Positions 1-5,099 of a stretch of DNA of 64,000 nt are shown piece after piece. The DNA is from Escherichia coli. Its GTDB lineage: Bacteria; Pseudomonadota; Gammaproteobacteria; Enterobacterales; Enterobacteriaceae. The first letter of the stretch is position 1; every line of letters begins with the position of its first letter. Under the pieces are notes generated by a model. It saw only the letters and a list, made by a program, of their open reading frames with translations, was not told the origin of the DNA and searched no databases. A program made the translations under genes and the position numbers. The DNA lies in the NCBI RefSeq assembly GCF_003334255.1, contig NZ_QOWU01000009.1. One strand, 5' to 3'.

Positions 1-408
1 CAGTGCTTTAGTCAGCGGAGGCAGAATAGTGTTGATATATTCGTCAGTGGTCTGCTTGATCTTATTAGCAATATCTTCAGCAGCACCCAGCGCATATTCA
101 AAGAAGCTAATCTGTAAACGCAGGTCATTCAGGCTTACATCGAGAGTGGAATACGTATTAGCGAACGCGTACAACGGCAGGTTCTCGTTCATTTTGCTAA
201 TTTCTTCGCACAGCTCGAGATTATATTTATCCCAGTCAAAAATAACGCCGCACAGACGCGCATTGTTTTCGATCAGTTTTAATAAGTCGTCACGGTCGTT
301 CGGGTAAACAATCTGGAAGTTCAGACGTTCAAGCGCGCGATGAAGTTCACGGATGGGTTCTTCTTTAAAATAAACCCCCATGTGATTCAATATTGCAATA
401 ACGTTCAT
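1..408 (-). CDS. cadA: Lysine decarboxylase CadA, N-terminal 136 codons only; gene continues beyond window start
   Basis: Reverse-complement of 380..408 translates MNVIAILNHM and of 1..28 gives ILPPLTKAL, matching recalled CadA N-terminus; not on ORF track because truncated. Confidence 0.9.
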   Translation of the reverse strand, partial: MNVIAILNHMGVYFKEEPIRELHRALERLNFQIVYPNDRDDLLKLIENNARLCGVIFDWDKYNLELCEEISKMNENLPLYAFANTYSTLDVSLNDLRLQISFFEYALGAAEDIANKIKQTTDEYINTILPPLTKAL

Positions 409-487
409 AGTCATATCTCCAGGTAAAAAAGGCCCCTCCCAACACATGGGACAAAATGAAAGGAGGAGCCTCGGAAAATACTTTTAA

Positions 488-1822
488 TTAATGTGCGTTA
501 GACGCGGTGTGGTTATCCATTGAGTGGCTCTGGCGCTCGTGCATTTTGCGAGCGTAGAACATCAGGATAATCAGGCTGACGATGAAGGTACCTGCCAGCT
601 CGAAGGAGCTTGCGCCCATCAGCGCGATGAAGCAGAACACGCAACCCAGTACAGAGCAGATCAGGCTGACAAAGTTGCGGATGTTAACGCCTTCAAAACG
701 AATCAGGTCAACGCAAGAGTAGAAATACGGCAGCATAGTCAGCAGTACTGCGATACCGGTCAGTTCACCGAACAGGTCAGATGCTTTACCACCGGCAGAG
801 TTCATCAGAGTGATAAGGATCATCAGGGCAGTCATTTTCACTGCAGCCAGCAGCAGACCTTTTTTCGGAATACCGTTGCTGTCGACTTCACCATAAACTT
901 TCGGGAAGTTACCGTCGTTAGCGGCACGTACACCTGCCTGGCCTACCAACATCATCCAGGAGCCCAGAGAAGTCAGGCACGCAAAGGCGGTGAATGCAGA
1001 AACCAGCGGCGCAGCCCAGTTACCGAGGATAGTTGAAGCACTGATTGCAAACGGAGCACCGGAAGCCGCCATTACAGAAGACGGATACATACCGGAAAGC
1101 ACCTGAGTCGCAGCGATGTAAACAATACCTGCTAAACCAGTACCCAGCATGGTTGCCAGCGGAACGGTACGTTTCGGGTTTTTAACCATACCAGTACTTA
1201 CAGCTGCGGATTCAACACCCACGAAGGCCCACAGGCAGAGCAGAATACTTTTAATGATCGCATGACCATCAGTGGTATCCGCAGTATTCCAGTTAGCTGC
1301 ATAAGTTGCTGCATCAAACCAATGCCAGCCAACAATAGCAGTCATCACCACAGGAATAAGAACCAGCACCAGACCAATAGTGGTTAAACGGCTTACCCAA
1401 GTACCGCCGAGCATATTTACAAAGGTAAATACCCAGACGATAGCAATACAGGCGATACCCGCCGGAACAGGATCATTTAATACTGGGAAGAAGGTGGAAA
1501 GATAAGATACAGCGGTAATACCAATCGCCAGGTTACCAATCCAGTTAGCATGGTAATAAAGAACACCTGTCTGAAAACCAAATGCAGGGGAAATTTCTCC
1601 GGCATAAGCAATTGGGCCACCTTGTTGCGGGTTTTTTGTTGCCAGTCGGGCATATACATACGCCAGCGACATTGCACCAATAATAGAGATAATCCAACCC
1701 CAGATAGCAATACCACCGATACTTGCTAGGTTCGCAGGTAATAATGCAATACCGCTCCCCATCATATTACCGGCAACAACACCGGTACAGGCAAATAGCC
1801 CGATCTTCTTGGCAGAACTCAT
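488..1822 (-). CDS. cadB: Cadaverine/lysine antiporter CadB
   Basis: ORF track 444 aa, full-length recognition of CadB (MSSAKKIGLFACTGVVAGNMMGSG...); sits upstream of cadA on same strand. Confidence 0.95.
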   Translation of the reverse strand: MSSAKKIGLFACTGVVAGNMMGSGIALLPANLASIGGIAIWGWIISIIGAMSLAYVYARLATKNPQQGGPIAYAGEISPAFGFQTGVLYYHANWIGNLAIGITAVSYLSTFFPVLNDPVPAGIACIAIVWVFTFVNMLGGTWVSRLTTIGLVLVLIPVVMTAIVGWHWFDAATYAANWNTADTTDGHAIIKSILLCLWAFVGVESAAVSTGMVKNPKRTVPLATMLGTGLAGIVYIAATQVLSGMYPSSVMAASGAPFAISASTILGNWAAPLVSAFTAFACLTSLGSWMMLVGQAGVRAANDGNFPKVYGEVDSNGIPKKGLLLAAVKMTALMILITLMNSAGGKASDLFGELTGIAVLLTMLPYFYSCVDLIRFEGVNIRNFVSLICSVLGCVFCFIALMGASSFELAGTFIVSLIILMFYARKMHERQSHSMDNHTASNAH

Positions 1823-2186
1823 GCTCTTCTCCTAATTTCATTTTTGAATTTGGAGTCCGGGTCATGATGTATAACTATTTCCTGACCAGACCAAACTGGC
1901 GATAAGATTACTCACGAAAAAAGGATTAATCCTAAAGATTAGGTGAAATAACACAAAAGTTTCTGTAAGTGAGAACTTGAGGTTTTTTATTAACACATCA
2001 GGATCGCAAGTTGATATCATGAAAAGATAAACATTTAATGTTTACAATGGATTGCGTGACATTCTCTGGTTAAATTTATGTAATAAAAATTATGCGGCAA
2101 ATAAATTGCCGCAACATATTATACCAACAGGAACATACAAAAACTCAACAACAAATATTTCCGAGCATAAATCAACCCGGAGTTAC
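1823..2186 (-). promoter_or_regulatory. cadBA promoter region (Pcad), expected target of CadC and H-NS
   Basis: AT-rich 364-bp spacer between cadC stop and cadB start; role assigned from established cad operon biology, individual sites not resolved. Confidence 0.5.
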
Positions 2187-3725
2187 TTATTCTGAAGCAA
2201 GAAATTTGTCGAGATAAGGTACAACATAAGGAACAGAAGTCTGGAATATACCATTTTCAATCCAGTAAAGGGTGTTTGCCCCTGGGCGTAAATTAAAGGC
2301 GGTGAGATATGCATCAGCTGCTTCCCGGTTCATCCCCTTCATTTCATAAACCTTGCCAAGCAACACATAATTTAGCCAGGACATTTCAAGATCAATGCCA
2401 GTATTTATCGCCTGGTAAGACTCATCTGTTTTACCTTTTACCAGAGCACTGACCGCTTTTATTTGATATATAATGGACAGGTTGTTCAATTCCGGCAGTG
2501 TAACAATGTTATCTATTTCTGTGTTCAGTGCTGCTAATTGTTTTTCATCTAAAGGATGTTGAGAATGGCGCACGATATCAACTAATGCTTTTTCTGCTCT
2601 CGCGTAGGTAAATTCTGGGGATGATTGAACAATCTCACCTAATAATTCACTGGCACGGTTCAATGATTTATCATCGCCATGCAGTAAATAATCATGTGCC
2701 TGATAAAAATTAGTTAATAACGCACCACGATGCGGCAAAATTTTCTGGAGCGTCTCCTGCATTCGTTGTGGCCACGGTTGGTTTAACGCTTTTGATAAAC
2801 TCTCCAGTAAATCATTTTGAATCGCCAGCTGATTACCGTTAGTGATGACATAACGTTTATCCAGCATGGTTGAACCATCTGCATTGTCTACCAATTTTAT
2901 CGACATAAAGCATTGTTGAGCACGGTATTGGCGCTGATTAACAAACGCAATAGATAATGTTTTACCGGAACTGCTCGGTTCATCAATGTTGTAGTTGATT
3001 TTGTCATGCACCATAAAGGTGGAGAAGGTGTTAAGTGATGTCGCCACCAAATCACCCACGCCTATCGCGTAAGAGAGCTGATACGGGGAACTCCAGCTGT
3101 TACAACTTTTATTTACCATATTAATGTCAATATCGCGTGGATTGAGCAAAATACGCGATTTGCTCATAGGAAGACGTGTATCAAGACTTGAAAACGCTAC
3201 CAGTGCTACACAGATACCTAACGACAACAGGAAAAAAAACCATACCCAAAAGGTAGTGAATCGTTTGCTTTTAACTGGGGATTGTTCAGGTGGCGTTGCG
3301 GTGTTTTGAATGTTAAGACTGTGGGAGGGAGAATCTGTGGCAGGAACCGCCTCTGGTATAGGGGGAGGCGAAGATAGCATTATTTCCTCTCCCTCTTCTT
3401 CGCTGTACCAGATAACCGGCACCATTAATTTATAGCCGCGCTTTGGTACAGTAGCGATATAGACAGGACTATCTTCATCATTATCTTTTAATGACTTACG
3501 TAGTTCTGAGATACTCTGCGTCACAACGTGATTGGTGACAATACTTCTCTTCCAGACATTATCGATAAGTTCATCCCTGCTAAGTACTTCGCCACTGTGT
3601 TGAGCAAAGAAAACCAGAAGATCGATTAATCTCGGCTCAAGGGTAAGTTGACGCCCATTGCGGCTAATTTGGTTTATGGACGGAGTAACAAGCCATTCGC
3701 CAACGCGAACTACAGGTTGTTGCAT
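2187..3725 (-). CDS. cadC: Membrane-integrated ToxR-like pH/lysine-responsive activator CadC
   Basis: ORF track 512 aa, recognised as CadC; contains PPPIP tract at residues 120-124. Confidence 0.95.
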   Translation of the reverse strand: MQQPVVRVGEWLVTPSINQISRNGRQLTLEPRLIDLLVFFAQHSGEVLSRDELIDNVWKRSIVTNHVVTQSISELRKSLKDNDEDSPVYIATVPKRGYKLMVPVIWYSEEEGEEIMLSSPPPIPEAVPATDSPSHSLNIQNTATPPEQSPVKSKRFTTFWVWFFFLLSLGICVALVAFSSLDTRLPMSKSRILLNPRDIDINMVNKSCNSWSSPYQLSYAIGVGDLVATSLNTFSTFMVHDKINYNIDEPSSSGKTLSIAFVNQRQYRAQQCFMSIKLVDNADGSTMLDKRYVITNGNQLAIQNDLLESLSKALNQPWPQRMQETLQKILPHRGALLTNFYQAHDYLLHGDDKSLNRASELLGEIVQSSPEFTYARAEKALVDIVRHSQHPLDEKQLAALNTEIDNIVTLPELNNLSIIYQIKAVSALVKGKTDESYQAINTGIDLEMSWLNYVLLGKVYEMKGMNREAADAYLTAFNLRPGANTLYWIENGIFQTSVPYVVPYLDKFLASE

Positions 3726-4298
3726 AATAGAAACTCATTCGAAAAGGGAATGATGCAATGATAATTGCCACAACCTATTTTTACCATCTATAGATGGGTT
3801 TATTTACATATTATTGGTGAATGCAAGACGTTATTTTTACCAGCCATAAACTTCTTGATTACATAGTATTACGAAAGGATTTTACTGAGAACCAGAAGTA
3901 ATATTCCTTACCATCAAAATTCATCATCTTTGCCAAAGAAAAATGTTCAGAAAATAATCCATGGAAAATTGTCCGGAGCACTTACTATTTTAATGGATTG
4001 TTAGTCTTTGCATGAGCAAGCGAACTGATACATTTCTCTTTGTTCTCATTCAGAAAATCTCATCAGTCGCCGTTCAGACCGGTGTTGTGCTTTATGGATG
4101 CGTTACGCTCCTGATGACGTCATTTGACGTTCAACAGCATCACGGGGCCGCACGACATTTCACGTCAGTTAGTGCTATAGCTCAGGAACAAATTTTCCCG
4201 AATTGGGATATGCCCGCAAATTGCTGGTGATGTGGGGAGAATCTGGTTGAGTTCGGTAGAATTGATTTGGAGGCAGAACGCTTAAATCGTGGCGTCCT

Positions 4299-4331
4299 GA
4301 AACGAAAAACGGACCTCCGTGGAGGTCCGTT
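4299..4331 (-). terminator. Rho-independent terminator downstream of pheU
   Basis: Perfect 9-bp stem aacggacct/aggtccgtt (4308..4316 / 4323..4331) followed on minus strand by U-rich tract. Confidence 0.6.
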
Positions 4332-4341
4332 TATATGAATT

Positions 4342-4417
4342 TGGTGCCCGGACTCGGAATCGAACCAAGGACACGGGGATTTTCAATCCCCTGCTCTACC
4401 GACTGAGCTATCCGGGC
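4342..4417 (-). tRNA. pheU: tRNA-Phe (GAA)
   Basis: Reverse complement reads GCCCGGATAGCTCAGTCGGTAGAGCAGGGGATTGAAAATCCCCGTGTCCTTGGTTCGATTCCGAGTCCGGGCACCA, the canonical E. coli tRNA-Phe. Confidence 0.95.
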
Positions 4418-4523
4418 AACGGGGCGCATTAAACCGTAATCTGCACATCTCGTCAACCTAATTTCAGTAAAAGCGATTCAACTGCTTAAGATTGCGGCAA
4501 ATCGCTTCTTTTCTGTGTTTCTG

Positions 4524-5099
4524 TCAGGTCAATGCACCACCCTGGCGGCAGCGGGCGAAGCGCAGGATATCTTCCGCCAGCCGATGTGCAGTGTCGACAT
4601 CCGCCTGGCTACGATTCACCAGCATTCGGCTTAAACAGCCTTCCAGCACCAGTTCCATCTGCTTTGCTACCATCGCCGGATCGTCAACTTCCAGTGTGGT
4701 TAACAGTTCGTGGGTGAAATCGTAGGCCGCGCTTTTTTGCTGATCGGCCAGTTGATGAATAGGGTGGCCAGGATCGGGATAAAACGTACAGGCAGCGATA
4801 AATAGACAGCCCGGATAGCGGTTGTTTTTAACGCACTCCGATAACGCCTGATAACGTGCCAGCAGCTTTTGTTCGGCGGTTTGCGTTTCGTCCAGCATCA
4901 GCTGACGACGCCAGACATCTATCTGTTGGCTAAGATAACGCAGCGCATCGTAGAGGATTGCCTCTTTGTCTGGCCAGAAGCGGCGTAGCTCGTCCAGTGG
5001 ATAATCCACACGTTCAGCAACCATCTCCAGCGTGGTGTTGGCAATCCCTTGTAATTCTAATAATTTCAGGGCTTCTCCCAGTACATCTTCACGTTGCAC
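4524..5099 (-). CDS. yjdC: TetR-family transcriptional regulator YjdC
   Basis: ORF track 4524..5123; start moved to GTG at 5099, which has GGAGG 8 nt upstream; 191 aa, TetR-like N-terminal helix-turn-helix region. Confidence 0.8.

Follow-up and report, generated by a model that had tools for sequence, protein, structure and literature searches.

The spacer between cadC and pheU in Escherichia coli as the probable remnant of an ancient P4-type integration at tRNA-Phe

Introduction

In the integration module of phage P4, an att core is followed by some 150-200 nt with tandem 12-nt arm-type repeats and then by the integrase gene (int), which reads away from the core. In P4 itself, 152 nt separate the core from int, and the annotated tandem 12-nt attP arm repeats gATGCCCCCAAT and tATGCCCCCAAT lie in between. 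In Escherichia coli, the yjdC-pheU-cadC interval is listed as an insertion site for pathogenicity islands (PAIs), the LEE (locus of enterocyte effacement) and integrative and conjugative elements (ICEs), and islands with an intP4-type integrase carry imperfect repeats of 19-23 bp at their far end, attR (PMC7686366; bioRxiv 10.1101/549998; PMC11537424); many established islands of the GI-pheV type also lack an attR (PMC11537424). The window analysed here, a 64-kb stretch of E. coli DNA, covers a K-12-type cadB-cadC-pheU-dicD-dsbD region, and its spacer between cadC and the tRNA-Phe gene pheU is very probably the tRNA-proximal (attL) end of an ancient P4-type island that integrated at the 3' end of pheU.

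The locus resembles the described systems in the order of its parts. P4 targets leuX instead of tRNA-Phe and, compared with the P4 module, the window keeps one arm-type repeat and has no functional int. With the intP4-type islands at pheV and pheU (GI-pheV, the papGII PAIs and the LEE at pheU) it shares the tRNA target, the integrase family and the order tRNA-leader-int. However, only the ends of int are left, namely codons 1-9 and, frameshifted, codons ~351-420; the old island lacks an attR or a recognisable cargo boundary, and the stub, far from being variably present, is fixed in sister species and almost all E. coli. The pseudogene yjdQ (b4654) of K-12 is the same feature, but its annotation is limited to the C-terminal fragment, to which the gene start, the leader and the 3' flank are added here. 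A further copy of the same integrase C-terminus with ~145 nt of 3' flank is found on pESI-like megaplasmids of Salmonella Infantis. This copy is 70% identical to the window, but lies on a plasmid, with an uncorrupted frame, a 5' side that is cut beside an IS110 element and no adjacent tRNA.

The core finding is already known, as pheU is a classic hot spot and the stub is listed as yjdQ in K-12, a name not found in the searchable literature. What is added below, namely a corrected anatomy, an age at the level of the genus, a figure for occupancy and the long repeats that flank modern islands, is incremental.

An internally deleted P4-type integrase beside pheU

In MG1655 (NC_000913.3), yjdQ is annotated at 4362191-4362353 on the minus strand, which equals positions 3982-4144 of the window, and in RefSeq genomes the annotation pipeline PGAP labels 3985-4144 (minus strand) as a frameshifted, incomplete tyrosine recombinase with a 'missing N-terminus'. 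A preliminary description of the window had mentioned this pseudogene and had regarded the spacer as a possible island-integration scar. The MG1655 annotation bears out the former, and the integrase homology together with the junction variation reported below supports the latter; the integrase frame had escaped that reading because the gene is internally deleted and frameshifted.

The homology is seen with several intact relatives. When the intact 416-aa leuX-linked integrase of Salmonella houtenae is used as a tblastn query, residues 360-392 align to 4144-4061 (E = 9e-6), and residues 1-9 align, collinearly and weakly, to 4178-4152 (E = 0.7). With the pESI-like plasmid copy as bait, an intact 420-aa integrase was found in E. 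coli 2018-02-2CC, where its gene is the immediate neighbour of pheU and has the same dicD-dsbD surroundings. This protein contains the domains Arm-DNA-bind_3, Phage_int_M and Phage_integrase and shares 55% identity with phage P4 Int (E = 3e-174); the same intact gene lies beside pheU in an O111:H8 strain and in strain 131, in the position and orientation of the stub. Blastn against the intact pheU-linked locus gives three collinear high-scoring segment pairs: 4185-4420, covering tRNA and leader (89% identity, E = 7e-78), 4147-4185, covering the gene start (29/39 matches, E = 0.002), and 3882-4152, covering codons ~356-420 and the 3' flank (68% identity, E = 4e-36). Window positions 3899-4152 furthermore match the pESI-like plasmid copy with 70% DNA identity (E = 1e-31). 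The search for integrase homology in 3726-4341 that the preliminary description had proposed is hence positive at the level of pairwise alignment, and the significant collinear similarity, along with the position and orientation of the intact genes beside the tRNA, identifies the stub as a P4-type integrase homologue that abuts the 3' end of a tRNA gene documented as an integration site.

Read along the minus strand, the tRNA is followed by its terminator, which falls within a 114-nt leader, by one arm-type repeat, by codons 1-9, by the site of a ~1-kb deletion, by codons ~351-420 and by the ~145-nt 3' flank. The stub begins 163 nt past the tRNA, compared to 197 nt for the intact homologue. 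Codons ~351-420 contain an additional nucleotide near 4119, a 16-nt deletion at 4098/4099 that takes out the VRAAY codons with the catalytic tyrosine, and a 14-nt deletion at 4059/4060, and they end at the TAG stop of the integrase itself at 3985-3987. Only codons 1-9 remain of the arm-type DNA-binding domain (Arm-DNA-bind_3, residues 3-88 in the intact homologue), and neither Phage_int_M nor Phage_integrase is retained in the stub, residues ~10-350 with the GHGFR box being deleted and the catalytic-tyrosine codons gone. An open frame is absent from the stub, which carries an ATG to ATA change at its start, at least three frameshifting indels and in-frame stops. The homology of the 3' flank reaches 3882 in the intact locus, where an insertion sequence (IS) breaks the comparator, and 3899 in the pESI plasmid copy, which also shows a marginal collinear extension to about 3840 (z about 4.4 against shuffles). 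Judged from these alignments, the lesion is an internal deletion that kept the gene start, the leader, one arm-type repeat and the 3' flank, and not the 5' truncation that is annotated.

The leader side of the stub preserves part of the P4-type layout as well. In the intact locus the arm-type motif is present as a tandem pair, TATACCCGCA and TATACCCACA, with 12-nt spacing, and the second copy falls in a 12-nt gap of the window relative to that locus. By analogy with the P4 attP repeats, the surviving motif ATATGCCCGCAAAT is a putative arm-binding site of Int.

The plasmid copy used as bait is itself unannotated. On pESI-like megaplasmids (pN55391, NZ_CP016411.1, positions 3000-3395 of locus L005, and ~140 similar plasmids), the C-terminal ~95 codons and the 3' flank sit between a TerB-domain gene and an IS110 transposase gene, and the fragment is 94.5% identical to the pheU integrase of 2018-02-2CC.

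Age and decay of the stub in Escherichia

A CadC scan with one genome per species returned 49 loci. The spacer can be aligned in Escherichia sp. E1V33 (92%), E. whittamii (86%), Escherichia sp. MOD1-EC7003 (85%) and the divergent 'E. coli' SCPM-O-B-8794 (79%), and the junction that fuses the N- and C-terminal parts is common to these four lineages and E. coli. Since the same junction occurs in five Escherichia lineages, the deletion, and with it the scar, predates E. coli. The other Escherichia lineages retain ATGGCACTGACTGACGC at the gene start, encoding MALTDA as in the intact gene, and in SCPM-O-B-8794 (locus L021) the fusion is still in frame, with MVLTDNKMS followed across the junction by CSGLWSRDPVKRQM. 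For E. whittamii and SCPM-O-B-8794, the tRNA, the leader and the gene start fall within a single segment pair (E = 3e-76 and 3e-91, respectively), and the position of the catalytic tyrosine reads aspartate in E. whittamii.

The stub decays at a neutral rate, by substitutions as well as by indels of lengths not divisible by three. Between lineages, identity amounts to 81-93% for stub, leader and flank, compared to 83-88% at the third codon positions of cadC, and the smaller indels, of 10, 12, 14, 16, 23 and 28 nt, are lineage specific. The leader segment 4185-4296 is 84-88% identical across Escherichia species, which equals the neutral rate, whereas the terminator segment 4297-4345 is 96-98% identical and lies above the neutral level. 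High identity (96-97%) is also seen in the 69 nt next to cadC (3726-3794).

The order of events would then be as follows. In a common ancestor of E. coli and the related Escherichia lineages, an island would have entered pheU at its 3' end, with, away from the tRNA, att core, tRNA terminator, a leader with one or more arm-type repeats, and int. A deletion of ~1 kb then fused int codon ~9 to codon ~351, with loss of the arm-binding, the central and most of the catalytic domains, and would have left the neighbouring DNA non-excisable by that integrase. The start-codon mutation and the small indels subsequently accumulated neutrally, with selection acting only on the terminator and on the 69 nt before cadC. 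The tRNA 3' end is intact and functions as attB to this day; newer islands enter between tRNA and stub, so that stub and cadC come to lie at the distal end of the island.

An insertion of another kind was seen on the 5' side of the tRNA in Escherichia sp. E1V33 (locus L012, 7108-9310) and E. whittamii (locus L014, 7094-9296), in which ~2.2 kb lie between dicD and pheU, compared to 106 nt in E. coli.

pheU as an insertion site in present-day E. coli

The spacer is present at a coverage of at least 80% in 5219 of 5426 complete E. coli genomes. An 801-nt probe that spans pheU, with one end in the stub and the other in dicD, matches 3724 of these genomes without a break and is interrupted between pheU and the stub in the other 1702 (31%), as counted by a coverage proxy and not by full alignments. 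The junction thus varies between genomes, which the preliminary description had suggested checking, and its occupants include CP4-type islands, a defence island and an ICE of the type of Salmonella pathogenicity island 7 (SPI-7). A 240-nt probe of the tRNA junction gave 4% disrupted sites and was rejected as an undercount. Short junction probes score occupied pheU sites as empty (4% vs 31%) because most incoming islands bring a near-identical 114-nt leader with them, which calls for caution in comparative genomics.

In ~87% of the interrupted genomes (1702 minus 223 that fail the short junction query too), pheU is followed by a near-identical leader, the pheU-side match beginning at query position 329, or window position 4228. 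In 2018-02-2CC, the O111:H8 strain and strain 131, the incoming island has this leader and then the intact integrase. On the cadC side, the matches in interrupted genomes end 21-49 nt into the tRNA. Copies of the tRNA 3' end at attR were read directly and measure 22 nt in 2018-02-2CC and 14EC047, ~19 nt in EA7 and 50 nt in the ICE of JNEC-KY174, and beyond attR in 2018-02-2CC, EA7 and JNEC-KY174 lies a K-12-type spacer followed by cadC. When the attL and attR sides of the 2018-02-2CC island are aligned, the flanking repeat extends to ~136 nt (leader plus core) with 5 differences, which suggests that most pheU islands are bracketed by repeats of ~136 nt rather than ~20 nt. The occupants differ in their integration modules: EA7 carries a CP4-type island with a different, 396-aa integrase and a different leader, JNEC-KY174 an SPI-7/PFGI-1-type ICE, and 14EC047 a tandem stack of islands.

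The ~55-kb island of 2018-02-2CC encodes type II Zorya, large helicase and methylase genes and a CbtA/YeeU module. Most of the cargo examined (locus L010, 13818-43641) is of defence type and comprises zorA2-zorB2-zorE, a STY4851/ECs_5259-family protein, three very large DEAD/DEAH helicases, a 1,642-aa S-adenosylmethionine-dependent DNA methyltransferase and a UvrD-like helicase. In 14EC047 (locus L002, 7778-8045), attR and terminator are followed by a second truncated integrase start (...gtcagtgccat) with a leader and then by a very large gene for a TcdA/TcdB-type glycosyltransferase toxin, which indicates tandem islands with what is probably another decayed integrase.

Deletions and insertions that affect the spacer itself were also encountered. 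In strain YJ4 (NZ_AP023230.2, locus L003), IS1 replaces cadC-cadBA-dtpC-lysU-ghoST and joins yjdJ to the spacer at about window position 3932. The loss of the cad region in this strain is of the 'black hole' type, and one of its endpoints lies inside the spacer. An O8:H- strain lacks the same ~10 kb (PMC3408504). In the K-12-like H1 (NZ_OY754443.1) and H197 (NZ_CP080133.1), an IS1 is inserted within the spacer, the match to which is split in two over ~1.4-1.6 kb with an IS1 transposase gene annotated there.

The cad block beside the stub

Salmonella and Klebsiella share with E. coli the gene order dicD-dsbD-cutA-dcuA-aspA on the 5' side of pheU. On the other side, synteny with Salmonella ends precisely at the 3' end of the tRNA and returns at dcuS. 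The interval from dcuS to pheU contains yjdIJ-ghoST-lysU-dtpC-cadABC and the stub in E. coli, compared to dimethyl sulfoxide reductase genes, STM4309-4318, a fimbrial operon and phoN in Salmonella. The block cadC-cadB-cadA-dtpC(-lysU) is syntenic from Klebsiella to Edwardsiella, with a tRNA-Phe gene upstream in Escherichia only; its upstream contexts fall into at least five groups, one of which is common to Serratia, Edwardsiella, Hafnia and Shimwellia, and none resembles the E. coli neighbourhood. The GC content of cadC (0.42), cadA (0.476) and lysU (0.475) in E. coli is below that of the flanking genes dcuS (0.499), dicD (0.531) and dsbD (0.544), whereas that of cadB (0.494) and dtpC (0.514) is not; ghoST has 0.349. 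In other genera cadC has a GC content of 0.50-0.56, so that the E. coli gene is 8-14 points lower. The contexts and the GC values fit an origin of the block as island cargo, the base composition being suggestive and not decisive.

Tentatively, and with somewhat less than even probability, cadC-cadBA-dtpC-lysU, possibly with ghoST and yjdIJ, may be surviving cargo of the ancient pheU island, inserted at tRNA-Phe by a P4-type integrase and locked in place by the ~1-kb deletion in int. This proposal is kept apart from the conclusion on the spacer because neither an extant integrase-linked cad element nor an attR was found. Nothing else in the analysis would be new. The sequence derived from the island comes as close as about 115 nt to the cadC start, and if the block is cargo, cadC would be read from DNA that began as the 3' flank of an integrase gene. 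Capture of the Cad acid-resistance module at pheU would also be relevant to the ease with which Shigella and enteroinvasive E. coli lose the cad region.

Serratia grimesii (locus L032, 6324-8466) and 'Citrobacter freundii M-21' (locus L040, 6699-8831) have a second cadA-like decarboxylase gene ~1.5-3.5 kb upstream of cadC, which belongs to the upstream context common to Serratia, Edwardsiella, Hafnia and Shimwellia.

Alternative explanations

Several observations weigh against an island end at pheU, or limit what can be said of it. No integrase among the NCBIfam and PHROGs profile hidden Markov models (HMMs) matched 3726-4341 when it was translated in all six frames with stops masked, because the pieces of the stub are too short and frameshifted, and the integrase assignment thus comes from pairwise alignments with intact relatives. 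For the N-terminal piece, the match is weak in the window alone, at the protein as well as the DNA level, and convincing only together with the other Escherichia sequences. The age estimate is based on five lineages, and the stub is only ~68% DNA-identical to the intact comparator. Lastly, no copy of the 23-nt tRNA 3' end at up to 6 mismatches, nor of 16 nt at up to 3, was found in window 1-4341 or in the 20 kb of melA-cadC (shuffles also gave 0). The direct repeat that the preliminary description had proposed to look for is therefore missing for the old island, of which no attR survives, whereas modern islands do have repeats of 19-50 nt. A plain AT-rich regulatory region without a mobile-element past, in which the integrase label is an annotation artefact, would agree with the negative HMM searches, with the conservation of the 69 nt next to cadC and with the action of H-NS at the AT-rich cadBA and cadC promoters (PMC5430869). 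This is scarcely tenable, as it is refuted by the collinear DNA and protein homology to intact loci, which includes start, end, stop codon and 3' flank, and by the intact genes that match in position and orientation beside the same tRNA. It is equally hard to credit that the spacer is explained by a genuine small-protein gene, the weak 72-codon open reading frame (ORF) without a recognisable family that was noted in the preliminary description. The ORF exists, and its frame is intact both here and in Escherichia sp. E1V33, but it is antisense to the stub, has no match in NCBIfam or PHROGs and no Shine-Dalgarno sequence seen in the preliminary description, and it is broken in three of the five lineages, by a frameshift or stop in E. 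whittamii and MOD1-EC7003 and by loss of the ATG in SCPM-O-B-8794, in a region of neutral evolution where indel lengths are not divisible by three. It was rejected as a gene.

Two further proposals accept the integrase remnant and differ on what lies to either side of it. The island may have been inserted beside cad genes that were already next to pheU, with a later deletion leaving only the ends of int, in which case cadCBA-dtpC-lysU would not be cargo; we consider the case for and against this to be evenly balanced. The absence of a P4-type integrase within 10 kb of cadC in ~40 non-Escherichia species, as searched by tblastn with the intact integrase, agrees with it, as do the fact that no mobile cad island was seen, the lack of an attR beyond lysU and the 84-94% identity of the block proteins to Klebsiella and Enterobacter orthologues, which are not obviously foreign; moreover, large deletions that end in or near the spacer do occur, such as the IS1-linked loss of cadC-ghoT in YJ4. 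It is opposed by the confinement of the pheU-adjacent arrangement to Escherichia, with both flanks unlike every other genus sampled, by a dcuS-to-pheU interval that is lineage specific in Salmonella too, and by the low GC content of cadC, cadA and lysU relative to dicD and dsbD (0.53-0.54) and to cadC elsewhere. On the tRNA side, the 114-nt leader could be viewed as extended homology, a landing pad for RecA-dependent gain and precise loss of intP4-type islands. The frequent occurrence of a near-identical leader behind pheU and the ~136-nt repeat around the 2018-02-2CC island are in line with this, and the leader is ~97% identical between island and stub, compared to about 68-74% for the int parts, which suggests exchange. 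Nevertheless, this role is unlikely, since segment 4185-4296 evolves neutrally and bears no sign of selection, and the identity of the leader could reflect conservation within the element family.

Features of the spacer and minor observations

The coordinates of all features are collected in Table 1. The preliminary description had delimited the 616-bp spacer between cadC and the tRNA-Phe 3' end exactly, as judged by the ORF list, ARAGORN and Rfam, and had called it AT-rich. This holds for the spacer as a whole (GC content 0.396, compared to 0.512 for the entire window), but it is mostly 3726-3984 (0.317) that is AT-rich, and 4001-4341 is near normal (0.463).

Table 1. Features in and around the cadC-pheU spacer, in positions of the 64-kb window
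Feature	Position	Strand	Evidence and remarks
cadC	2187-3725	-	512-aa ORF; ORF list and annotation; heads the cadC-cadBA-dtpC-lysU block that abuts the stub
Spacer cadC/pheU	3726-4341		616 bp exactly; tRNA 3' end (4342) faces the spacer
cadC-proximal constrained 69 nt	3726-3794	-	5' untranslated region and ribosome-binding site, possibly core promoter
Integrase 3' flank	3840-3984		Non-coding, island-derived, AT-rich; alignment to flanks of intact and pESI copies
Integrase codons ~351-420, frameshifted (= yjdQ)	3985-4151	-	PGAP, MG1655, tblastn, DNA alignments to pESI copy and intact pheU integrase
72-codon ORF	4012-4230	+	ORF list; antisense to stub; judged spurious
Junction of ~1,034-bp internal deletion, codon ~9 fused to ~351	4147-4152		Ends of segment pairs; absent stretch corresponds to comparator locus L009, 6284-7317
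Integrase codons 1-9 (IALTDVKCR)	4152-4178	-	Start ATG to ATA at 4176-4178; tblastn, blastn
Single surviving arm-type repeat ATATGCCCGCAAAT	4208-4221		Putative Int arm-binding site, by analogy
Leader, tRNA end to integrase region	4228-4341		114 nt; near-identical copies in modern intP4-type islands
pheU intrinsic terminator hairpin	4307-4332	-	12-bp stem, then T-run; terminator scan; inverted repeat 4307-4318/4321-4332
pheU, tRNA-Phe(GAA)	4342-4417	-	ARAGORN; Rfam RF00005, 68.3 bits; pheU b4134 in MG1655
att core, 3'-terminal ~23 nt of tRNA	4342-4364		Copied at the far end of modern pheU islands

When 3400-4700 was compared with Rfam (E <= 1), the tRNA and two chance matches were returned, and no known RNA element. 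The preliminary description had placed the cadC promoter in the spacer, in which visible constraint next to cadC is limited to the proximal 69 nt. A scan with the sigma-70 consensus gave no candidate for a cadC promoter on the minus strand, its one plus-strand match being within shuffle expectation, and nothing usable on the cadC transcription start was found in the literature. E. albertii keeps the cadC-proximal 69 nt alone of the spacer (94% identity). In E. albertii NBRC 107761 (locus L029, 1-4263), an ORF of 612 aa that weakly matches a cassette-chromosome replicative helicase lies upstream of these 69 nt. By eye this ORF resembles the P4 alpha/primase, and in place of the stub a P4-like element apparently borders cadC at -69.

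Fragments of CadC are also encoded on three low-coverage contigs of 279-643 nt that are filed under Arthrobacter (L055), Myxococcus (L057) and Alkalicoccobacillus (L058). Two of the fragments are 100% identical to E. coli CadC and that of L057 is 69% identical; the contigs are most likely enterobacterial contamination. Elsewhere in the window, and unconnected with the finding at pheU, three tandem tRNA-Gly(GCC) genes, presumably glyVXY, lie at 34151-34450 and are spaced 112 nt from start to start.

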